DNA of 64,000 nucleotides from an uncultured Candidatus Saccharibacteria bacterium (GTDB lineage: Bacteria > Patescibacteriota > Minisyncoccia > Phycocordibacterales > Phycocordibacteraceae): the NCBI GenBank assembly GCA_964638585.1, contig CAZXAN010000002.1, positions 9,291 to 73,290 on the forward strand, in the 5' to 3' direction. Position numbers and translations under genes: made by a program. How positions within the stretch are numbered: position 1 is the stretch's first letter; every line of letters starts with the position of its first letter. Shown piece by piece: positions 4,089 through 44,749 of this stretch. Under the pieces are notes generated by a model. The model made no database searches, was not told the DNA's origin, and worked only from the letters and a program-made list of their open reading frames with translations.

Positions 4089-4790
4089 ATGGTTTGCATG
4101 CTACAATTTTTCAAAATGCACCAAGAAGAAGCTTTCACATTCAGAGATTTGTTCAGACGCGACCGATTGCCCTCGCTTATCACAGCGTTTGCTCTACTCG
4201 GCGTGGCTTACACCTTTGAGCACTATGCAAATGTATACGCTTTTATCTATACAGAACGCTCTACAACTACACACGTAGGCGATTTTATCTTAGACGGTAT
4301 CCCAGCTATTGATCTCAACTTTATAATAATTGAAGTGGCTCTGTTCGCGATTGTAATCGGCACGGCATATGTGATCTCTAAGCCAAGGTACCTTGTGTTT
4401 ACGCTCAAAGCGATTGCACTCTTCATAATTATCCGCGCAATATTTATTTCTCTCACGCACGTTGGCATCCACCCAGAAAATATAGCTCCGGGACGTGGGT
4501 TCTTTGACGCTATTTACTTATATCTCCATTTTCAAACCGGACTATTCTTCTCTGGCCACACTGGGTTACCATTTTTAATTGCACTTATATTCTGGAAGAA
4601 GCCTGTCGTGCGCAATATACTTTTGTTACTATCGCTTGTCTTCGCCGCTGCTGTTCTCTTGGCGCATGTGCACTACTCTATAGATGTATTCGCTGCTCCG
4701 TTTATGGCATACGGCATCTACCGCATCGCACGATACTTTTTCCCCAAGGACCACGAGCTTATTGAAAAAGATACAGTGTTTAAGGAGTAA
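4089..4790 (+). CDS. PAP2-superfamily-like integral membrane protein
   Basis: Multi-TM; motifs resembling PAP2 signature: ISKPRY, FFSGHTG, LAHVHYSIDVF (H..D). Confidence 0.45.
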   Translation: MVCMLQFFKMHQEEAFTFRDLFRRDRLPSLITAFALLGVAYTFEHYANVYAFIYTERSTTTHVGDFILDGIPAIDLNFIIIEVALFAIVIGTAYVISKPRYLVFTLKAIALFIIIRAIFISLTHVGIHPENIAPGRGFFDAIYLYLHFQTGLFFSGHTGLPFLIALIFWKKPVVRNILLLLSLVFAAAVLLAHVHYSIDVFAAPFMAYGIYRIARYFFPKDHELIEKDTVFKE

Positions 4791-4792
4791 TT

Positions 4793-5788
4793 TTATTTGC
4801 CACGGCCGAAGTATTTTTTGAGAAGAGCGACATGCTCTGCATACGTCTGCGAACAGTGGAATCGTCTAGCCGAATCGTGGAAGTAGAAGATGCAAGAAGT
4901 ATTTCTAGGATTAAGGGCTGCTAGCACAGACGCAACTGACGGGTTAGAGATAGGTGTAGGTGGCAGTCCCTTGTTGAGATATGTATTATATGGCGACTTG
5001 CGAGATATATCTCTAGGTGGGACAACCTTTGGCCACCAGCCTGCGCCCTTTACGCTATTCGCTTTGGCGTACTGTAGTGTTGCGTCTATTTGTAAGGGCA
5101 TGTTTATAAAAAGTCTGTTCCAGATGATTCCAGATATGAGGCGTCTATCGTCAGCACCGCCAGCCTCTCTCTCAATCATAGAGGCGATAGAGAGAGCCTG
5201 CTCAAGAGGGACAATTTGCGCAATGGTCTCACTATATCGCGAGAGGATGTCGTTATAGAATCGTTCATTTACAAGAGCCTGTGCCTCTATTGGTGTTGTG
5301 TTGGGCGTGACTAGGTATACGCCTGGAGAGAAAGAGCCTTCTATAAGTGGTAGAGATTCGTCTGGTCTCGCAGTTAGGAATTCTTTTTTCTGTATCGCGC
5401 TCCACGAGAGAACCTTTGCAAATGCGTTTGCCACCTGTTCTTTGCGCATACCAGCAGTGATTTTAACAAAGCGTCCGTCTACTCCCGCGATGCTCTGATA
5501 GAAGGGTATCTCACTAATCGCTATAGCGACCCAGTCAAACACGCTAGAAAATATTTCTGCCATGTTACCAGTGGCAGCTTGGAGTGGCGAATTTTGATTT
5601 TCAAAAAATGTGTTCACGTCAGCATTCTCAACTATCACTCTATTCTTTGGGTCAACAGTGACAGGGAACTGTTCTGAATATGCAGTTATACTGCTGTCAC
5701 TCTGAACATTTGATGCAAGGATTATAGGCAGAGAGAACATTACTACAGTAAACAAAACGACTATTAAAACTATTAGACCAGTCCTCAT
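4793..5788 (-). CDS. mltG: Endolytic murein transglycosylase MltG (YceG family)
   Basis: N-terminal TM, YNTYLNKGLPPTPISNPS motif typical of MltG, overall YceG architecture. Confidence 0.75.
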   Translation of the reverse strand: MRTGLIVLIVVLFTVVMFSLPIILASNVQSDSSITAYSEQFPVTVDPKNRVIVENADVNTFFENQNSPLQAATGNMAEIFSSVFDWVAIAISEIPFYQSIAGVDGRFVKITAGMRKEQVANAFAKVLSWSAIQKKEFLTARPDESLPLIEGSFSPGVYLVTPNTTPIEAQALVNERFYNDILSRYSETIAQIVPLEQALSIASMIEREAGGADDRRLISGIIWNRLFINMPLQIDATLQYAKANSVKGAGWWPKVVPPRDISRKSPYNTYLNKGLPPTPISNPSVASVLAALNPRNTSCIFYFHDSARRFHCSQTYAEHVALLKKYFGRGK

Positions 5789-6136: not shown

Positions 6137-6517
6137 TCATCTCCTCCTTACCATTGACCACTTACGGAATGAGCAGAGCGAGTAAAAGATTGCCTCGTCT
6201 GCATGTCCATTATCGCTCAGAATCCCGACGAGCTTTTTGGCAAATTCTGCTGTGGCCCGCTGCGCAGACGGAGTTCCTGCGAGATGAGTGCCTAACTCCA
6301 TTTCAGCACAGTACTCGTAGGTAATCGCGATAAGTGCCGGGCTCTCCTCTTTATTGTAGGTAAGTGGCAAAAGGAGCTTTGAGTCAATCAGGCGTGACAA
6401 CTTGATGACGTCGTTCGCGTCCGGCTCCTCGGTTGAGAGTGTCGTACACGCTGAAATAAGTAACGCTGCTGCGATAGTGACTATTCTAACGAACGTTTTC
6501 ATTTGCGTGCTCCCCAT
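6137..6517 (-). CDS. Hypothetical lipoprotein (probable start at internal Met, MKTFVRI...)
   Basis: Signal peptide with lipobox LLISAC. Confidence 0.4.
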   Translation of the reverse strand: MGSTQMKTFVRIVTIAAALLISACTTLSTEEPDANDVIKLSRLIDSKLLLPLTYNKEESPALIAITYEYCAEMELGTHLAGTPSAQRATAEFAKKLVGILSDNGHADEAIFYSLCSFRKWSMVRRR

Positions 6518-7490: not shown

Positions 7491-7906
7491 CTCCTTATCT
7501 TTTCGCGTTCGGCTGCGATCTTAGTGCGAACTCTCTGTTTGAGGGCGGCGGCCTTTTGTGAGGCATGCCAACCAAGGACGCTCATAACTATGTTTAGTAT
7601 TAAAACAAAACTCAAGTATAGTATGAAAGACTTTTCTGAAATCGCTGGCGCGAGGATAAAAAATGTCGGCAAGAAGCTAATCATGCCGACTACTACGTCC
7701 ATGAACCTGTTTGTAGGAGCTTCTTCTATATGCACCAACATTTCCCACATCTCGTATGCGATAAGTAAGAGTAGAGTAATGATGACTGATGCAAGCGCTT
7801 CAATCTGTAAAAAGTAAATGCAGAGTCCTATAGATATGCCGGAAAGGAAGTGTACGACACTCCACATGTCTAGCCACTTACCTTCGCGCCAAATGTCGGT
7901 TCTCAT
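7469..7906 (-). CDS. Hypothetical 4-TM membrane protein with basic C-terminal tail
   Basis: Hydrophobic segments; KIRRRKQNQH tail. Confidence 0.4.
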   Translation of the reverse strand: MRTDIWREGKWLDMWSVVHFLSGISIGLCIYFLQIEALASVIITLLLLIAYEMWEMLVHIEEAPTNRFMDVVVGMISFLPTFFILAPAISEKSFILYLSFVLILNIVMSVLGWHASQKAAALKQRVRTKIAAEREKIRRRKQNQH

Positions 7907-10290: not shown

Positions 10291-10872
10291 GGTCCATTTC
10301 CTCCCCCCGCCACGGTATATAATGTACCGAATGGCAGACAAGAGGAAATACGCCGACAGGAGAGAAGAACTCATTCGAGCGGTTGCAAAGCGCAGAAGAA
10401 AGATTAAGAGCATGGCGATTGAGTACAAAGGTGGCAAATGCCAAATTTGTGGCTACTCAAAATATCAAGGAGCGTTTGATCTTCACCACATTGATCCGAA
10501 ACAAAAAGACTTTGGTATCGGCGATAAGGGTTACACCCGATCGTGGGAGAGGGTTAAAGCGGAACTCGATAAATGCATCTTGGTTTGTGCGAATTGTCAT
10601 CGCGAGGTTGAGGCCGGCGTTACGCAGCTTCCTAAAGAGATTTAGGTTGAAAAATGAGGTGAATTCGGGGAAACCCTAACAGCGGAAATGCTGTGGGCAA
10701 TCCCGAGCCAAGCCACGACGACAGGCGTTGTGGAAGGTGTAGAGACTATCCCGCAAGGGAGTACCCTTCGAAGCTTTATGCGAAGTAGGGGAAGCGCCTC
10801 ACACCCTCGATCTGCGAAAGCAGGTACGGGTGATGATATAGTCCATCCCTCTAGGTAACTTAAGGAGCGATG
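10291..10872 (+). mobile_element. Group I intron (putative) with internal HNH ORF
   Basis: U at 5' splice site, G at 3' end; GNRA hairpins GGGGAAACCC, CAGCGGAAATGCTG, CCCGCAAGGG; P7-like GACTA/TAGTC in GTAGAGACTAT...GATATAGTCC resembling R/S elements. Confidence 0.55.
10331..10645 (+). CDS. HNH homing-endonuclease-like protein encoded inside the intron
   Basis: CQICGY...LHHIDP...CANCHR HNH/zinc-finger pattern; track ORF 10241 start is an in-frame upstream extension across the tRNA exon. Confidence 0.6.
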   Translation: MADKRKYADRREELIRAVAKRRRKIKSMAIEYKGGKCQICGYSKYQGAFDLHHIDPKQKDFGIGDKGYTRSWERVKAELDKCILVCANCHREVEAGVTQLPKEI

Positions 10873-37403: not shown

Positions 37404-37669
37404 CGATAGGTCTAATTATAATTTTTATGGAACCAGAAATAAAAAAAGAAAATTGTGGGAGTTGTGAAGGGAAGTGCTGTGGGAAGCATAAGTGGCACAA
37501 ACACGGTCATCAGTCATCCGGCGCGCTCTACTGTCTAGGTGTCATCGGCGCGGCTGTTTATTATATTCAGCTCGCACCGACCTTCTGGGCCGGATTCATC
37601 GGCGTCCTTAAGGCTCTCGTCTGGCCCGCCTTCCTCGTGTACAACCTGCTCGGCTATCTGGGGATGTAG
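37400..37669 (+). CDS. Small membrane protein with Cys/His-rich N-terminus
   Basis: CGSCEGKCCGKHKWHKHGH followed by two TM helices. Confidence 0.3.
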   Translation: MTIGLIIIFMEPEIKKENCGSCEGKCCGKHKWHKHGHQSSGALYCLGVIGAAVYYIQLAPTFWAGFIGVLKALVWPAFLVYNLLGYLGM

Positions 37670-37698
37670 CACCGCTCGAAATAGCCAAATAATCCCAG

Positions 37699-37733
37699 CC
37701 CGCGGAGAGCTCGCTCTCCGCGGGTTCTTTGTT
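37699..37733 (+). terminator. Hairpin CCCGCGGAGAG-ctcg-CTCTCCGCGGG + TTCTTTGTT
   Basis: 11-bp perfect stem plus T-rich tail; near-identical module at 38233-38275. Confidence 0.6.
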
Positions 37734-37744
37734 AATGAATGAGA

Positions 37745-37772
37745 TTGACAATACTGTTGGAGTGTGTATAAT
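37745..37772 (+). promoter_or_regulatory. Consensus sigma70-type promoter TTGACA-16nt-TGTG-TATAAT, followed by AGGAG RBS at 37804
   Basis: Exact -35 and -10 hexamers with extended -10 TG; drives 37815-38087. Confidence 0.6.
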
Positions 37773-37814
37773 AGAGAGGCTCGTCAATTGGCGAGTTAAC
37801 AGAAGGAGTTTGTC

Positions 37815-38087
37815 ATGAAAATGACGAAGGAAAGGATGGGCGAAATCGCCCTTGCATTGCTCATGGCCAAGTGGGACGCCGATGGTGGACTGAAAATTGG
37901 GACTCAATGGCCACGCACGCGTGGTCAACTGTCAAAAGACACAGGCATCTCCAACGATGAGCTTGATGTATTTTCAAAGGCGGTGCTCGTTCGCATGATC
38001 GGCAAGGCCTATGGGATGCAACACGTCGGTTTGACGATGGACGGTCCCATCAAGCCGCAGCCCGACGTGGAAGTCATCCAACTGTAG
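37815..38087 (+). CDS. Hypothetical small protein at left edge of defense island
   Basis: 90 aa, strong promoter and RBS, flanked by terminators. Confidence 0.45.
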   Translation: MKMTKERMGEIALALLMAKWDADGGLKIGTQWPRTRGQLSKDTGISNDELDVFSKAVLVRMIGKAYGMQHVGLTMDGPIKPQPDVEVIQL

Positions 38088-38195
38088 TACTTTCAAATAC
38101 CGATCCTGGTGGAGCTTTGGCTCCTTAAACGGGTAATTGCTCCTCTCTCCTCGTGAGACATTGGGCAGAACAAGAACCGTTCCCTCATCGGTACG

Positions 38196-38231
38196 CCGGC
38201 GGACTAACACTCCGCCGGTTTTCTTTTTTCC
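38196..38231 (+). terminator. Hairpin CCGGCGGA-ctaacac-TCCGCCGG + TTTTCTTTTTT
   Basis: 8-bp stem plus T-run. Confidence 0.5.
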
Positions 38232-38232
38232 A

Positions 38233-38275
38233 GCTCGCGAAGAGTTCTGCTCTTCGCGGGCTCTTTGTTTCTTTC
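38233..38275 (+). terminator. Hairpin CGCGAAGAG-ttctg-CTCTTCGCG + GGCTCTTTGTTTCTTT, paralog of 37699 module
   Basis: 9-bp stem; tail GGCTCTTTGTT matches GGGTTCTTTGTT of 37699 copy. Confidence 0.5.
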
Positions 38276-38357
38276 CTATCATAGCAAACGACTCAGACTG
38301 TCTGAGCCATTCGACTCCCTCACTCTGAGGCATTCGTCCGTTTGGTATAGTTAAATC

Positions 38358-38603
38358 ATGAAGGGAATCGCATCTGGCACTGTGCACAAGATGCCCGCAG
38401 ACCTGCGCAGGGCTCTCACTGCTTCTCCACCGGCGCGAGCGGTGTGGGGAGATATCACACCGCTCGCGCGTAACGAATGGATCTGTTGGGTGACGTCCGG
38501 TAAGAGAGAAGAGACGCGGAATATCCGTATAGAGAAGGCACTTTCTAAGCTCTCGGGCGGGATGCGCCGGCCCTGCTGTTGGGCAGGCTGTCCCCATCGC
38601 TGA
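38358..38603 (+). CDS. Hypothetical small protein with C-terminal CCWAGCPHR motif
   Basis: 81 aa, basic, Cys pair at C-terminus. Confidence 0.35.
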   Translation: MKGIASGTVHKMPADLRRALTASPPARAVWGDITPLARNEWICWVTSGKREETRNIRIEKALSKLSGGMRRPCCWAGCPHR

Positions 38604-38775
38604 CGCATCATCACCTTCACGGCATTCACCTTACGTATGGGCATGTTCGTTATCTCCCACGACCGTCGGACTTAACGAACATCACGTGGCGTGTACCAGA
38701 ACGTATTCGAACAAATAGAGCGCAAGCCACAGGTGGTTTTTGGGGTATTTAGGAGTAGTATAAAGGAACAAATTT

Positions 38776-39828
38776 ATGGAAAAGAAATCTTCAAATTCAA
38801 GTCTTCATCGGGCAGCCAAGGTGAAAAATGATGAGTTTTACACGCAACTCGCGGACATTGAAAGGGAGCTGAAACACTATAAAAATCAGTTTCTGGGGAA
38901 GGTCATTTATTGCAATTGCGATGACCCATTTGAGAGCAATTTTTTTAAATATTTTGCTGCCAACTTTAACGCATTAGGACTGAAAAGACTTATTACCACA
39001 AGTTACATAAAGTCGCCAATTGCTGGCGGGCAGTTGCCACTATTTGAAGTAGAAGGACTAAAGCCATTAGGTAAAGAGCCGTTTAAGATTGAAATTAATG
39101 AAGTACCAGATTCTGATGAAGATGGTGCAATAAATCTTGATGACGTTAAGTTTTTACTAAGGCACAACAAGAACACCGCTACACCGCTACGCGGCACCGG
39201 CGATTTCCGAAGCGAAGAATGTGTAGAACTTCTCAAGGAAGCAGATATAGTTTGCACCAATCCTCCATTTTCTCTTTTTCGTGAGTATGTAGCTCAACTC
39301 GTTGAATATGGGAAGAAATTTTTGATTATAGGAAACGACAATGCGAGAAAGTATCAAGATATTTTTAAACTAGTTCAAAAAAATAAACTCTGGCCTGGCT
39401 ATGGGAGAGTAAAAGAATTTATGCAACCAGATAAAACTATCAAGAAATTTGGTAATGTCGGATGGTTTACGAATCTTGATGTGGCAAAAAGAGATGAGTC
39501 TTTGACTCTGTATAAAAAATACAACTCAAAAGAGTTTCTCAAATATGATAATTACGATGCAATAGAAGTATCAAAGGTCTCAGAGATTCCGATGGACTAT
39601 AAGGGCGTAATGGGCGTTCCAATAACTTTTCTTGATAAATATAATCCAAATCAATTTGAAATTTTGGGAATGTCAGACAATAGAGATCCCAATTACAAGT
39701 TTCGAACCAAGTTGTATACTCAAAAGGATTCACCAGAGTATAACGACTTAAATAGGGGCACAGTGATAAAAATCAAGGGAGAACTTAAATCCACGTTTAC
39801 TCGTTTGTTAATCAAAGCTAAAAAATAA
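38776..39828 (+). CDS. N6-adenine DNA methyltransferase (EcoRI-methylase-like family)
   Basis: N-terminal KNDEFYTQ and catalytic NPPF motif. Confidence 0.65.
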   Translation: MEKKSSNSSLHRAAKVKNDEFYTQLADIERELKHYKNQFLGKVIYCNCDDPFESNFFKYFAANFNALGLKRLITTSYIKSPIAGGQLPLFEVEGLKPLGKEPFKIEINEVPDSDEDGAINLDDVKFLLRHNKNTATPLRGTGDFRSEECVELLKEADIVCTNPPFSLFREYVAQLVEYGKKFLIIGNDNARKYQDIFKLVQKNKLWPGYGRVKEFMQPDKTIKKFGNVGWFTNLDVAKRDESLTLYKKYNSKEFLKYDNYDAIEVSKVSEIPMDYKGVMGVPITFLDKYNPNQFEILGMSDNRDPNYKFRTKLYTQKDSPEYNDLNRGTVIKIKGELKSTFTRLLIKAKK

Positions 39829-39829
39829 T

Positions 39830-40936
39830 ATGAAAATTGAATTGCAAAAAATTTCGATTCGCGATGTGATGACCGGCTATAAAGACAGTCACGAAGAAGG
39901 AGTGGTCGCTTACGACGGCAAACTCGATGTCCGTCCGAAATACCAACGTGAGTTTGTCTACAAAGACAAACAACGCGATGCAGTTCTTGATACCGTCAAG
40001 AAGGGATTCCCGCTCAACGTGATGTACTGGATGGTGCGCGATGATGGCGGCTACGAGGTACTCGATGGTCAGCAACGTACCATCAGCCTTGGCCAGTATG
40101 TCAGCGGCGACTTCTCGCTCAATGATCGCTTTTTCCATAATCTAACCAAGGAAGAGCAAGAGCAGATACTGGCTTATGAATTGATGATTTATTTCTGCGA
40201 GGGTACGGACAAGGAGCGACTGGACTGGTTTAAGACCATCAATATCGCGGGTGAAAAACTAACGGATCAAGAATTGCGAAATGCCGTTTATACCGGCCCG
40301 TGGCTTTCTGATGCGAAACTCAAATTCAGCAAATCAAATTGCGCCGCATATCTTCTTGCAAACGATGGAGGGCAGTTGGTAAGCGGTTCGCTCATTCGAC
40401 AGGAATATTTGGAAACTGCACTTTCGTGGATAAACAACGATGAGATTGCTGACTACATGGCGAAGCATCAGCACGACAAAGATGCTAACGCATTGTGGGA
40501 GTATTTTCAAAATGTCATTGCATGGGTGCGTAAGGTATTTCCGAGCTACCGCAAAGAAATGGCGAGTGTAAATTGGGGCGAGTTGTACAATCAGTTCAAA
40601 GATAAGGAACTGGACGCCACGAAACTAGAGGTCGAAGTTGCAAAGTTGATGCAGGACGAAGACGTGACGAAAAAGTCCGGTATTTATCCATATCTCTTAA
40701 CAGGAGAAGAAAAACATCTTTCTATCCGTGCGTTTAACGATAAGATGAAACGCGAGGCATATGAGAGACAGAAAGGTATTTGCACTCACTGCAAAGGTGA
40801 AGACAAGAAAAAGAAATGGGAAATAGAAGAAATGGAAGCCGATCATATAAAGCCTTGGCATGAGGGTGGAAAAACTACCGCTGGGAATTGCCAGATGTTG
40901 TGCAAACAGGATAATCGCACTAAGTCTGGGAAATAA
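39830..40936 (+). CDS. DUF262 (ParB-like, DGQQR) + C-terminal HNH/DUF1524 nuclease (GmrSD-like)
   Basis: DGQQRTISL motif; C-terminal CTHCKG...ADHIKPWHEGGKTTAGNCQMLCKQDN HNH; starts 2 nt after MTase stop. Confidence 0.65.
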   Translation: MKIELQKISIRDVMTGYKDSHEEGVVAYDGKLDVRPKYQREFVYKDKQRDAVLDTVKKGFPLNVMYWMVRDDGGYEVLDGQQRTISLGQYVSGDFSLNDRFFHNLTKEEQEQILAYELMIYFCEGTDKERLDWFKTINIAGEKLTDQELRNAVYTGPWLSDAKLKFSKSNCAAYLLANDGGQLVSGSLIRQEYLETALSWINNDEIADYMAKHQHDKDANALWEYFQNVIAWVRKVFPSYRKEMASVNWGELYNQFKDKELDATKLEVEVAKLMQDEDVTKKSGIYPYLLTGEEKHLSIRAFNDKMKREAYERQKGICTHCKGEDKKKKWEIEEMEADHIKPWHEGGKTTAGNCQMLCKQDNRTKSGK

Positions 40937-40988
40937 AACAGTGAAAGGCTGACTACGATCCAGCATCGATCCATATGGATAAATCGAA

Positions 40989-41456
40989 ATGAAAAACCTA
41001 GCATATCAAGACATAATTAAGGAAAATATCACCATTATCTTAACGTTTGTATTTTCTCGCGAGAGGCTGCAGGAGATATCAAACGATAGGACCTTGGGAG
41101 AGTGGAAATTTCTAGGGGACGCAGTTAGCGAGGCCACTTTGGCCAGAGCAGAACGTGCCGCACTGGAGTTGGGGATTTTATTTCGCCTACTGGACGACAA
41201 GTATAAAATACCGAACTACTTTAAAGATAAAAAGACAATTGTTTTTGGTTTAATCTCTGGAGGATCGGAGTCAGGTCAACATCTGTCTGCTAGAGAAATG
41301 TCCAACAAAATCGTGCATGCACAAGATTTGAAATGGGATACGAGATCATCGAAAGAACCTAAGCTAATTTGCATATCCAACCAACCAGACAGATGGCAAT
41401 CAGCAGAAATCGATGTTTTAAAGCTTGCTCTCCTTTGTAGTCAGCTCATGCGTTGA
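40989..41456 (+). CDS. Hypothetical protein (no recognisable domain)
   Basis: 155 aa between GmrSD-like gene and mrr. Confidence 0.35.
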   Translation: MKNLAYQDIIKENITIILTFVFSRERLQEISNDRTLGEWKFLGDAVSEATLARAERAALELGILFRLLDDKYKIPNYFKDKKTIVFGLISGGSESGQHLSAREMSNKIVHAQDLKWDTRSSKEPKLICISNQPDRWQSAEIDVLKLALLCSQLMR

Positions 41457-41602
41457 AATTGTATGGTGGGAAATGGGTACAGAAACTATTGTTTTGCGTT
41501 TGCGTGATCTGATAATTCAGCAAAGTGGGTGCTGATGGACGAGTACACTCAATCATTATTTCAATCATTGCATTGAGGACCTAAAGATGATCTAATCATC
41601 GA

Positions 41603-42493
41603 ATGGAGAAGCAGATACCTAAATTTCAAGAGACATTTTTGCCAATTTTAAAAGTCCTTGATAAGGAAGGAACTATTCGAACGAGTGAGTTGAAGAAAAA
41701 AGTTCGAGATGGATTTTATGGAGATCTTCCGAAAGAGTTACTTGAGGAGACCACAAAGAATGGAGACATCTTAATACTTAATCGTATCGCCTGGGGTAAG
41801 GCATATCTGAAGCAGGGAGGAATGATTGAGCAGCCAGAACGAGCACTCGTTCGGATCACTGCTAAAGGGCAAAAGATATTAAAACAAGGTGGACTCTCAC
41901 TAAAAGAATTGTTGCATGACGAGGACTTTCTGGCACGCAGACTAGAAGGCAAAAAAACAAGAGAGGAAGAAGACACTATTGATGCGAGCGCTTCGCCCCA
42001 GGATCTAATTGACGCTGGCTTCAAAGCAGTCGAGACTTCAGCAAAAACTGATTTATTATCTAGATTGAAAGGCATTGATCCCTTCTATTTTCAGAAGGTT
42101 ATTTTACTGCTATTGGAAAAAATGGGTTACGGGGATTTCATCGAGACGCCAAAGTCAGGGGACGGAGGGATTGACGGCGTGATTAGTCAGGATAAACTCG
42201 GGCTTGAGAAAATATATATCCAGGCGAAAAGATATACTGAAAATAAGGTAAGAGAGGGCGAGATTCGTAATTTTATTGGAGCGATGAGTCGCGATGCGAA
42301 TAAGGGGATTTTTGTTACTACCTCTACGTTTGATGAAAAGGCTGTTCAGAAGGCGCGCGATGCTGGGCAGAAAATAGTTCTAGTCGATGGCTCTATGTTG
42401 GTTGATCTAATGTATAAATATGGAATCGGGGTGCAGGTACGAAGTACCTATGAGATTAAACAAGTTGATGATGATTTTTTTGAAGAAGAATAA
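41603..42493 (+). CDS. mrr: Mrr-family restriction endonuclease (Mrr_N winged helix + Mrr_cat)
   Basis: GDGGIDGV...YIQAKRY catalytic block, N-terminal wHTH. Confidence 0.7.
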   Translation: MEKQIPKFQETFLPILKVLDKEGTIRTSELKKKVRDGFYGDLPKELLEETTKNGDILILNRIAWGKAYLKQGGMIEQPERALVRITAKGQKILKQGGLSLKELLHDEDFLARRLEGKKTREEEDTIDASASPQDLIDAGFKAVETSAKTDLLSRLKGIDPFYFQKVILLLLEKMGYGDFIETPKSGDGGIDGVISQDKLGLEKIYIQAKRYTENKVREGEIRNFIGAMSRDANKGIFVTTSTFDEKAVQKARDAGQKIVLVDGSMLVDLMYKYGIGVQVRSTYEIKQVDDDFFEEE

Positions 42494-42557
42494 CAACTTC
42501 AGGTTTTAGCAACGGGAACCCTTGCTCACTCGCGAATGCTAGAGGCATTGTAGTTGT

Positions 42558-42637
42558 GCGGTATAATGGGGGTGTTACCAGTTAATGCGAAAGCTATGCA
42601 TAATCCACACAAGGGAGGGCTCTTTTTCGGGGCGGTT
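42558..42637 (+). repeat. Copy 1 of ~80-bp direct repeat (promoter-like TATAAT + ATG CAT AAT CCA... gene start), upstream of fic
   Basis: GCGGTATAATGGGGGTGTTACCAGTTAATGCGAAAGCTATGCATAATCCACACAAGGGAGGGCTCTTTTTCGGGGCGGT; encodes truncated MHNPHKGGLFFGAV... (21 aa then stop). Confidence 0.6.
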
Positions 42638-42739
42638 ATACACAGGTGGCTTACAAGTTAGTTGACAGGAGTGCTTCTAGGATATACTATATCGATAGTT
42701 AGTTTATCTACTAAGCATCACCATAAACTAACTCGAAAT

Positions 42740-43861
42740 ATGAATATAGAGATAGGCAAAACAGTGAAGCAACGAGAAGGCTTTTCAGCCTTTGTTCCGA
42801 ACCCTTTTCCACCAGAGGGTCTCTTTGACCTACCACAGGACATTCTCATCAAGGCGGCCGAAGCCGATCGTTTAGTCGGCAAACTAGATGGCATTACACA
42901 CACGCTCCCAGACGTAGATTTTTTCCTGCATATGTTCGTTGCAAAGGATGCAGAGTCCTCAGCCCAAATCGAGGGTACGCGGGCGACTATGATGGATGCT
43001 CTAAAGAAGGGTGCCGGTCTCGTACCAACTGCGACTGACGCCGACGATATTCTCTACTATATACAAGCGTTGAATTACGGAACAAAACGACTCAAGACTT
43101 TGCCACTATCCTCCAGACTCATACGGGAAGTACACGCTAAGCTTATGGTGGGGGCTCGAGCCACGCATTTCGCAAATCCTGGCGAATTCAGGACGTCGCC
43201 AAACTGGATTGGCGGCACGGCGCCAAACAACGCGCTCTATGTACCGCCGCCCGCGCCTGAGATGCATCGCGCACTCAATGATTTTGAAAAATTTCTTCAT
43301 GACGAGAAAAGTGTGCTGCCTCTGATTCATATCGCGCTTGCGCATGCCCAATTTGAGACGATCCATCCGTTTTTGGACGGTAATGGCCGCACAGGCCGTC
43401 TCATCGTTACGATGCTTCTTTGTCATCGCGGCTTACTTGAGCGGCCGGTATTATTTCTTTCATCCTATTTTAGACGACATCAGAAGGTCTACTACACTCG
43501 GCTGAATGGTTATCATGACGGTGATGTTCACGCGTGGCTGGATTTCTTTCTGGATGGCGTTATTGATACGGCAAACGAATCTATTGAGATATCAAAAAAG
43601 ATACGCAAGATTCGTGATACTGACATGGCAAAAATTCAGGCTCTCGCAAAAAGGGAGTCGGAGAGTGGCGTGGTTGTACTACCGCGTCTTTTCCGTGAAC
43701 CTGTCGTAACAGCCACGACGGTGATGAAGTGGACAAGGTTTTCACGAGCAGGGGCTCTCAAATTACTCGATCGCTTTGTCGCGCTTGGGATTCTTGAATC
43801 CGTTCAGTCGCAAGGGCAGGGGCGAAGTTTTGTATATCGACGTTATATTGATGTGTTTTAG
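42740..43861 (+). CDS. fic: Fic/Doc family protein
   Basis: Fic motif HPFLDGNGRTGRL; start at ATG 42740. Confidence 0.8.
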   Translation: MNIEIGKTVKQREGFSAFVPNPFPPEGLFDLPQDILIKAAEADRLVGKLDGITHTLPDVDFFLHMFVAKDAESSAQIEGTRATMMDALKKGAGLVPTATDADDILYYIQALNYGTKRLKTLPLSSRLIREVHAKLMVGARATHFANPGEFRTSPNWIGGTAPNNALYVPPPAPEMHRALNDFEKFLHDEKSVLPLIHIALAHAQFETIHPFLDGNGRTGRLIVTMLLCHRGLLERPVLFLSSYFRRHQKVYYTRLNGYHDGDVHAWLDFFLDGVIDTANESIEISKKIRKIRDTDMAKIQALAKRESESGVVVLPRLFREPVVTATTVMKWTRFSRAGALKLLDRFVALGILESVQSQGQGRSFVYRRYIDVF

Positions 43862-43904
43862 GACTACCATGGCTCACTTGCGAAGTCTAAAGATTGGTAG
43901 TCGC

Positions 43905-43983
43905 GCGGTATAATAGGGGTGTTACCAAATAACGATAAAGCTATGCATAATCCACACAAGGGAGGGCTCTTTTTCGGGGCGGT
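43905..43983 (+). repeat. Copy 2 of ~80-bp direct repeat; here it is the functional promoter and 5' end of gene 43919-44200
   Basis: GCGGTATAATAGGGGTGTTACCAAATAACGATAAAGCTATGCATAATCCACACAAGGGAGGGCTCTTTTTCGGGGCGGT; about 90 percent identical to copy 1. Confidence 0.6.
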
Positions 43984-44200
43984 GCTGGGCGGGGTGCACG
44001 TCGTCTGGGCTCTACTCATCGCGCTCGGATGGGCACAGTCGCTCATTAACTTCAGCTTCTGGGCGCACATGATCCACTTGAATGTCGTTATTGGGCCCTT
44101 TGACGCGACGGCCGCACTGACGGTCATCGTCGTGGCCGCTATCATCGGTTACGTGGTCGGCTATCTCGCCACGCTCATCTGGAACAGGGTCAATCGTTAA
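43919..44200 (+). CDS. Small 2-3 TM membrane protein
   Basis: 93 aa hydrophobic; 5' end lies in repeat copy 2. Confidence 0.35.
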   Translation: MLPNNDKAMHNPHKGGLFFGAVLGGVHVVWALLIALGWAQSLINFSFWAHMIHLNVVIGPFDATAALTVIVVAAIIGYVVGYLATLIWNRVNR

Positions 44201-44271
44201 TTAGCCCGTAAGGTGACACCTCGTTGCGAGGAGTCAACTTACGAATCTTATAAACTCATTTATAATTATTT

Positions 44272-44688: not shown

Positions 44689-44749
44689 GGCAGGTCGTAA
44701 GGTGACACCTTACTGAGTCCTTTGCTCTTTTTGAATCGTTCTGAACAGC

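Follow-up and report, generated by a model that had tools for sequence, protein, structure and literature searches.

The window described here, a stretch of 64,000 nucleotides (nt) from contig CAZXAN010000002.1 (positions 9,291 to 73,290, assembly GCA_964638585.1) of an uncultured Candidatus Saccharibacteria bacterium, harbours a fic gene that is bracketed by two direct repeats and lies immediately upstream of a small membrane-protein gene (Table 1). The labels of homologues point to a Kaiserbacteria-like member of the Patescibacteria. Each repeat comprises a promoter, a 5' untranslated region (UTR) and codons 1-14 of the membrane-protein gene: the downstream copy runs into the intact gene, and the upstream copy is a relic ending in a truncated open reading frame (ORF) that points into fic. 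The fic gene is of the SoFic type; SoFic genes are toxic and confer defence through abortive infection (PMC12249575). The arrangement is likely to stem from the insertion of a SoFic cassette, without a recombinase, at the 5' end of the membrane-protein gene, in the course of which approximately 115 bp of target DNA became duplicated, an event of the kind termed 'insertion with long target duplication'.

Table 1. Features of the fic locus and of the island around it (window positions)
Feature	Position	Strand	Remarks
Variable island of 6.84 kb between TspO and DUF1761	37404..44243	.	Absent in L194/L195, other cargo in L196
Low-GC defence block: type II methyltransferase (MTase, EcoRI-like), GmrSD_N/HNH restriction endonuclease (REase), 155-aa unknown, type IV Mrr	38776..42493	+	
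Repeat copy 1, upstream relic	42522..42636	+	-35/-10-like promoter (GGTATAAT at 42560), 5' UTR, codons 1-14 of membrane-protein gene
Truncated 21-codon ORF in copy 1	42596..42661	+	MHNPHKGGLFFGAVIHRWLTS and stop, made up of MHNPHKGGLFFGAV plus IHRWLTS
Inserted SoFic cassette, 1233 bp	42637..43869	+	Leader plus fic ORF; homology to fic loci in unrelated contexts
Cassette's own promoter	42657..42690	+	GTTAGTTGACA (-35 TTGACA, 42662-42667), 17 nt, TATACTAT (-10, 42685-42690); conserved across fic loci
11-nt inverted repeat, putative operator	42697..42733	+	AGTTAGTTTAT / ATAAACTAACT, between -10 and ATG
SoFic-type class II Fic AMP-transferase gene, 373 aa	42740..43861	+	Pfam, structure matches, PADLOC
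Repeat copy 2, functional	43870..43983	+	Promoter (GGTATAAT at 43907), 5' UTR, codons 1-14; runs into intact membrane-protein gene
Membrane-protein gene, 85 aa, uncharacterised Patescibacteria family, no Pfam match	43943..44200	+	Likely target of the insertion, kept intact
Strong hairpin CGTAAGGTGACACCTCGTTGCGAGGAGTCAACTTACG after membrane-protein gene stop	44207..44243	+	z = -3.67; 3' end is right edge of island

An ungapped repeat search returned 87 nt at 91% identity (42550-42636 versus 43897-43983), with a spacing of 1347 nt. A gapped alignment lengthens the repeat to copies of 115 and 114 bp, which fill 116 columns with 16 differences and an identity of 86.2%; both copies therefore exceed the 30 bp taken as the direct-repeat criterion for long target duplication. 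An earlier note on this DNA had described two bracketing copies of about 90% identity sharing a -10-like box, the first of which yields only a truncated ORF. All of this is borne out: the two copies have 86-91% identity over stretches of 87-115 nt, above the bar of 85% over 70 bp that the note had set, the box GGTATAAT is found in each of them, and copy 1 encodes a stub of 21 codons whose TAG stop is located 1 nt ahead of the fic -35 hexamer. The differences between the copies are confined to one part of the repeat. All 16 fall within the first 69 columns, where identity is 77% (approximately 23% different), and the final 47 nt are identical; were the differences uniformly spread, the chance of sparing these last 47 nt would be P ~2.5e-4. 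The 3' edge of the repeat is sharp, as both copies end in GGGGCGGT, after which copy 1 continues with TATACAC and copy 2 with GCTGGGC. The 41-mer that extends from ATGCATAATCC to GGGGCGGT occurs exactly twice in the window, against an expectation of 0 (100 shuffles), and the search for further copies that the note had proposed, run on the window, likewise gave two.

The repeat structure is not an assembly artefact, because contigs of four or more independent assemblies, and separate Logan runs as well, contain both diverged copies with 100% identical sequence. Some Logan contigs are short, and the possibility that they signal circles or polymorphism was rejected: they break inside the 47-nt identical repeat, as expected of a k = 31 graph.

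The gene between the repeats can be assigned with some precision. Fic_N and Fic are the sole Pfam domains in the insert (Fic E = 7e-18), the product matches the SoFic structures 3eqx and 3zcn (E ~1e-29), and the PADLOC SoFic model PDLC03963 covers it at full length (E = 9.5e-106, residues 15-373). The translation contains the active-site motif HPFLDGNGRTGR, which satisfies HxFx(D/E)GNGRxxR, together with SAQIEG, an inhibitory-helix motif of the (S/T)xxxE(G/N) type, within the Fic_N region. An inhibitory helix in the same polypeptide defines class II Fic proteins (PMC12249575). On these matches, fic encodes a SoFic-type protein, known as a single-gene anti-phage system. The gene resembles the described defence system in its full-length hidden Markov model match, its active-site and inhibitory motifs, its C-terminal domain and its location in an island rich in restriction-modification (R-M) genes. 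It differs in one respect: the SoFic locus of E. coli H397 is reported to include the antitoxin AS1, whereas no conserved small downstream gene like AS1 is found at the window locus.

Upstream of fic lies a leader that forms part of the cassette. Its promoter matches 10 of 12 consensus positions, and the segment 42657-42733 contains three half-sites of the GTTAGTT type: one of them overlaps the -35, and the other two form the 11-nt inverted repeat, a region that folds with z = -1.8. Comparison of the leaders of L172, L175, L176, L092 and L096 revealed that in L096, the more distant, all three half-sites are altered together. This pattern suggests an autoregulatory operator, plausibly bound by the C-terminal domain of SoFic.

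The limits of the cassette were mapped independently of the repeats. The nearest fic relatives on long contigs, L172 (89% amino acid identity), L175 and L176, reside in wholly different neighbourhoods, and DNA homology between them and the window extends from 42655, 85 nt before the fic ATG, as far as the stop codon at 43861; 3' of the stop, the compared fic loci have no similarity to one another. The inner repeat edges, 42636 and 43870, are within 18 and 8 nt of these cassette ends. As fic homology across contexts stops at the inner edges of the repeats, the repeats adjoin the cassette on both sides. Repeat and domain searches of 42637-43869 disclosed no recombinase or transposase gene and no terminal inverted repeats, a domain search of the neighbouring genes found no integrase, recombinase or transposase, and at the 3' end of the cassette, 43862-43869 and its vicinity, there is no attC-like inverted repeat.

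Other SoFic loci indicate similarly compact units. What replicons of Sinorhizobium fredii and Sinorhizobium meliloti have in common is limited to a block that reaches from -201 to +34 relative to the SoFic ORF. On pSymA of S. meliloti R28 (L190) this block occupies a LysR-adjacent site that, on pSymA of S. meliloti ABS7 (L192), accommodates a RelE/RelB pair, and the breakpoint of homology lies 4 nt past the fic stop; on this comparison the site records an allelic swap of toxin modules and provides no empty site. The distribution of this Fic family is very wide and patchy: numerous lineages of Patescibacteria, as well as bins that bear Micrarchaeota and Nitrospirota labels, have members at 70-92% amino acid identity, and many of the matches are on gene-sized contigs of 1.3-1.45 kb. 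A second SoFic cassette, of 83% protein identity, was observed in a different organism (L176, ERZ27247830) from the same study as the window population, between Peptidase_M48 and Peptidase_S8 genes; its presence in the same sample set would fit with exchange that is still going on in the community.

The duplicated module itself belongs to the membrane-protein gene. The earlier note had recognized copy 2 as the real start of this gene, which stands inasmuch as the module opens the 85-aa gene; the start codon, placed by the note at GTG 43919, is more likely ATG 43943, as indicated by homologue alignment and gene calls. The closest homologue in another genome, P0002 in L008 (GCA_018968865.1), is 74% identical in amino acids and 81% in nucleotides. 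L008 harbours GCGCGGTATAAT, a similar UTR and identical first 44 nt, all in single copy, with no fic nearby and in a non-syntenic context; homologues elsewhere are also in non-syntenic contexts. In the alignment of 43943-43986 with L008 positions 295-338, these first 44 nt are 100% identical, compared with 78% over the rest of the gene, and third codon positions are conserved at 14/14 in the 44-nt core and at 53/72 elsewhere. This identity suggests recent exchange, or else a constraint that acts on the 5' coding region at the level of nucleotides. Around fic in its close relatives (L172, L175, L176) nothing resembling the module was found. Since L008 has the module once without fic, and the close fic relatives lack it, the module is, by this comparison, native to the membrane-protein gene and not to fic. 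One homologue, P0013, seemed to start at the duplication breakpoint; this proved to be a matter of the start-codon call only, as the full 5' end is present in L181.

Bracketing repeats are not restricted to the window. They were sought around fic in a set of 160 loci drawn from species-representative genomes and metagenomes. With 600-nt flanks and a score of at least 30, repeats were detected at 7/66 fic loci and in 3/325 shifted-segment controls; with 400-nt flanks and a score of at least 18, a second set of loci gave 11/60 against 1/165. A gene-aligned control, consisting of other ORFs of 250-550 aa from the same loci, gave 2/200 (1.0%) compared with 18/128 fic loci (14.1%; p = 1.7e-6). A conservative count, from which the loci of array or repetitive extragenic palindromic (REP) type L031, L085 and L086 were dropped and in which three hsdM-fic-hsdS loci (L153, L164, L166), apparently products of a single event, were collapsed, still yielded 14/123 (p = 4.5e-5).

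The repeats at these loci range from 24 to 145 nt and the duplicated host DNA differs from locus to locus. It includes a complete tRNA-Gly gene with 42 nt upstream in L080 (119 nt, 99%), the 5' part of a tRNA-Pro gene in L169, the 3' end of the isocitrate lyase gene in L108 (145 nt), the 3' ends of hsdM in L153 and of recD2 in L034, a terminator hairpin in L017 and a short operon junction in L125. An exact analogue of the window is provided by L116, where a rhuM-like gene that follows hsdM has its first 105 nt duplicated. Each of these duplications keeps both neighbours of fic intact. The upstream copy is always at least 80 nt from the fic ATG, a distance consistent with a leader that belongs to the cassette. 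Two of the repeat-bearing loci have a different character. In L031, from a Pseudomonadota metagenome-assembled genome (MAG), an element of approximately 176 nt occurs three times (4497-4672, 6198-6373 and 7516-7691), separating fic and the next gene; its spacing of 1701 and 1318 nt is array-like, unlike the target duplications elsewhere, and its reading as a target duplication was rejected in favour of a three-copy array element. In L086, fic lies within a tandem array of units of approximately 40 nt that contain a palindrome (beginning CCATGTTCAACGCAGCGTTTACTATGG) on both sides, at 4254-4419 and 5586-5751.

Six other loci in which one copy is part of an intact ORF disclose how the copies differ. 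The differences are distributed over codon positions 1, 2 and 3 as 8, 5 and 24, and approximately 26 are synonymous and 11 non-synonymous. The excess at third positions (24/37) has p = 9e-5 if equal thirds are expected and p = 0.049 if a 1:1 ratio is, the latter corresponding to a neutral relic paired with a constrained functional copy. Given this concentration on third positions, the relic copies look as though they diverged while still coding.

The fic locus is embedded in a variable region. Directly upstream of copy 1 is the low-GC defence block, with a GC content of 41% compared with approximately 48-49%; downstream of SoFic the membrane-protein gene is followed by genes for a DUF1761 protein, a SIMPL protein, MraZ and RsmH. 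The island as a whole comprises small ORFs, the R-M block, Mrr, copy 1, SoFic, copy 2, the membrane-protein gene and the hairpin. In L194 and L195, which encode an 85%-identical DUF1761 protein, TspO and DUF1761 are 112 nt apart and no counterpart of 37404-44243 is present; synteny with L194 picks up at 44244, exactly where the hairpin ends. In L196 the same gap accommodates different cargo, a MazG-like gene and a gene for a Schlafen-like helicase. The junction between TspO and DUF1761 is, from these comparisons, a variable hotspot in this lineage, and the repeat search found no repeats bracketing either the whole island or the R-M block. Because the gap is variable, the membrane-protein gene hit by fic is itself accessory: the earlier note had called it a resident gene, which is apt as far as its role as target is concerned, and less so for a gene that forms part of a 6.8-kb variable island. 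The note had also proposed a comparison with relatives lacking fic; among those compared fic is not universal, and at this locus the relatives have no fic at all. The first 15 nt of the hairpin (CGTAAGGTGACACCT) are repeated exactly after the DUF1761 stop (44696-44710); the element that follows the two genes may be a terminator or a REP-like end-of-gene element.

The repeat, the boundaries of the cassette, the native association of the module with the membrane-protein gene and the recurrence of the geometry elsewhere are established, and together they favour the reading proposed in the earlier note, namely that the repeats are the footprint of the insertion of a fic cassette at the 5' end of another gene. 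A self-contained unit, an autoregulated leader of approximately 95 nt plus fic, would have entered at the start of the membrane-protein gene, and the target (promoter, UTR and codons 1-14, approximately 115 bp) would have ended up on either side of it. Owing to the duplication the gene that was hit keeps a complete promoter and ORF, in the form of copy 2; a relic promoter and the 21-codon stub would have been left behind as copy 1, pointing into fic.

The route is inferred, and could have run as follows. The first insertion at any new target must be an illegitimate event. In a related donor that had already undergone it, a circle, or a terminally redundant fragment, carrying fic and one copy of the target would be excised by way of the flanking repeats. 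Integration would then proceed by a single homologous crossover of RecA type, that is, a Campbell-type insertion-duplication, between alleles of approximately 80% identity and within the 47-nt identical stretch, the only one of sufficient length for it, turning each copy into a chimera of donor and recipient. The circle route is favoured over decay in situ because of the third-position bias at other loci and because the differences spare the 47-nt core, which is also invariant in L008. Spread by single-crossover insertion-duplication between diverged alleles is thus probable on the patterns of sequence difference.

Several observations weigh against this account. The identity of 77% in the 5' 69 columns is old for a simple duplication in situ, and the recombination of alleles, invoked for the divergence, has indirect support. 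The codon-position statistic, which is key to the route, is marginal under the stricter null (p = 0.049). Among the positive loci, L153, L164 and L166 are not independent, and L031, L085 and L086 are repeat arrays. Bracketing repeats are missing from seven plasmid SoFic loci and from the three closest relatives of fic (L172, L175, L176), which implies that most insertions leave no footprint or that the footprint decays. Genomes carrying the arrangement of the window represent one population only: exact-protein look-ups with Fic, the membrane protein and Mrr gave solely the occupied arrangement and no empty site, and the syntenic relatives found through DUF1761 orthologues, which lack the whole island, offer no empty site either. 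Which way the event ran, and that the target was once single-copy, are accordingly deduced rather than seen. An occupied and empty pair was also sought in E. coli, where an enterobacterial plasmid SoFic had no DNA match in 5,426 genomes, and viral contigs harboured only SoFic relatives of no more than 41% identity.

In a second conceivable route the target was duplicated in situ at a de novo illegitimate insertion, without donor allele or circle, and the copies then diverged over a long time while gene conversion or selection preserved the 47-nt 3' part. This is the simplest form of the long target duplication described for R-M units; gene conversion could plausibly act over the 1.3 kb between the repeats, and the 44-nt core is under some nucleotide constraint, given its identity in L008 and the 14/14 conserved third positions. 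A decaying relic should nonetheless change uniformly, yet all 16 differences avoid the last 47 nt, and the relics at other loci differ mostly at synonymous third positions. Such a history is regarded as quite unlikely; it departs from the preferred explanation in route only, not in kind, and the chief competitor to the circle route is gene conversion that follows duplication in situ. A history different in kind would start from two diverged copies of the promoter and membrane-protein gene, either paralogues or separate cassettes, the upstream one of which was replaced by fic past codon 14, without any duplication of a target. The accessory nature of the membrane-protein gene, which is non-syntenic elsewhere and may move as a unit, would suit this proposal, as would the 5' halves, whose difference of approximately 23% is like that of two alleles. 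The deletion, however, would have had to stop exactly at the start of the homology between the copies, no more than 8 nt from the fic stop, an agreement of positions that follows from the duplication model without further assumption. Homology between copy 1 and copy 2 also extends approximately 31 nt further upstream than that to L008, the left edge is not an evident cassette end, and the unrelated host-DNA repeats at 11-14% of other fic loci are left without an account. The replacement of a second copy is deemed unlikely.

Two further proposals assign the repeats a function of their own. The module might be a portable regulatory element driving fic, through integron-like, riboswitch-like or leader-peptide control, a possibility raised in part by the earlier note, which had offered an integron-like promoter-plus-leader module as its alternative. 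Copy 1 does place the GGTATAAT promoter and a short ORF directly before fic, with no predicted terminator between. Against this, the module has two copies in 64 kb, is not dispersed there, and has none on the viral contigs searched; fic is preceded in every context by a conserved promoter and putative operator of its own, its close relatives lack the module, and neither an integrase nor an attC-like inverted repeat is present. A cis-regulatory RNA leader was likewise rejected, as the module has no match in Rfam and both copies have a predicted folding of z = +1.0, no more structured than shuffles. Regulatory reuse is therefore very unlikely. Like integron cassettes, the SoFic unit is a single-gene unit found in many contexts; it differs in having its own promoter and in standing as a single unit, without attC, IntI or an array in the window, and its flanking repeats are target DNA, different at every locus. 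Site-specific integration, with the repeats as attL and attR of a small element whose integrase acts in trans, is extremely improbable. It would accord with the occasional duplication of a tRNA gene (L080, L169), a classical att target shared with tRNA-targeting islands, and with a phage-integrase fragment approximately 900 nt downstream of fic in L172. The duplicated sequences, however, vary in sequence and length and have no shared core, no integrase is encoded in or beside the window unit, and L169 and the window duplicate the 5' part of the target rather than the usual 3' part. Fic loci further differ from tRNA islands in that whole genes or 5' parts are duplicated and in that the targets are mostly protein-gene ends and junctions. 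The unit is not an insertion sequence or transposon either, as it has no terminal inverted repeats and no transposase, and the duplications of 24-145 nt contrast with the short, fixed ones of such elements.

The preferred explanation, insertion with long target duplication, has its closest parallel in R-M genes. Furuta et al. (2010, PMC2853133) described R-M units of all types, mostly in naturally competent species, that are flanked by long direct repeats of host sequence, varying from tens to hundreds of bp, and carry no mobility gene; DNA breakage was suggested as a cause, and virus-like insertion, amplification and excision via the repeats were hypothesised. Long target duplication of R-M units was also reported by Nobusato et al. 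(2000, Gene 259:99), as cited in PMC3874152. The window insert has the repeat length, the lack of a mobility gene in an insert below 20 kb (1233 bp) and the repeat that is not dispersed (within the window and the viral contigs searched) by which Furuta et al. (2010) recognized such duplications, and departs from their operational criterion of R plus M cargo in containing SoFic only. In both cases a small selfish defence unit without transposase or integrase is bracketed by host sequence, often gene ends or whole tRNAs in the R-M cases, where the repeats are 84-100% identical, and the neighbours are left intact. The lineage of the window is thought to be naturally competent. The differences lie in the cargo, a single SoFic toxin gene with the R-M genes outside the repeats, and in the Patescibacteria host. 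The published R-M cases moreover rest on pairs of occupied and empty genomes, and no such pair was found for the window. Its repeats are more diverged (86%) and mosaic. The proposed route has a counterpart in Campbell-type insertion-duplication, in which one crossover inserts a circle carrying a chromosomal fragment and which is used as a mutagenesis technique in transformable bacteria. There too the cargo lies between two direct copies, the length of the copies equals the homology carried and RecA alone is required; both copies are chimeric, with the crossover in the best-conserved stretch. The case of the window would be a natural one, deduced from patterns of difference.

Apart from the fic locus, the window harbours a group I catalytic intron at 10600-10865 on the forward strand, which matches the Rfam model RF00028 over its full length (62 bits). 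The surrounding stretch contains no long ORF, and neither rRNA nor tRNA genes were called there.

The movement of defence genes without a recombinase of their own is poorly understood, and long target duplication, on record since 2000, has been described essentially for R-M genes only. The case presented here is of this known, mechanistically unexplained kind of recombinase-free gene insertion. The locus of the window, together with approximately 11-14% of SoFic loci, suggests that this mode of duplication extends to a single-gene abortive-infection toxin, to many phyla and to the reduced genomes of Patescibacteria. The insertion is non-destructive, as the gene, tRNA or operon junction that is hit is rebuilt, and it is also reversible via the repeats. 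No paper in the literature searched treats fic or SoFic as moving with long target duplications, although a gap in that literature does not prove that none exists; nor was an earlier description found of two aspects, the repeated link of this geometry with SoFic in different phyla and a divergence between the copies that resembles that of alleles. Tests of mechanism would be far simpler with the cassette, a unit of 1.2 kb with a single gene and defined ends, than with an R-M operon. The repeats also have a practical consequence, as they split short-read assemblies at the cassette ends and produce gene-sized contigs, and defence genes can therefore escape MAG-based surveys.

A broader and rather doubtful proposal is that SoFic cassettes are widespread recombinase-free selfish elements, which enter new sites by illegitimate insertion with long duplication, are excised as circles by way of the flanking repeats and spread to relatives by RecA-dependent insertion-duplication at the conserved target. 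DNA damage caused by the toxin might provoke the illegitimate insertion, in parallel with the breaks proposed for R-M units, and the conserved GTTAGTT operator would silence the toxin during transfer. Should this life cycle prove true, long target duplication would be a general mode of mobility of toxic defence genes and not a peculiarity of R-M systems.

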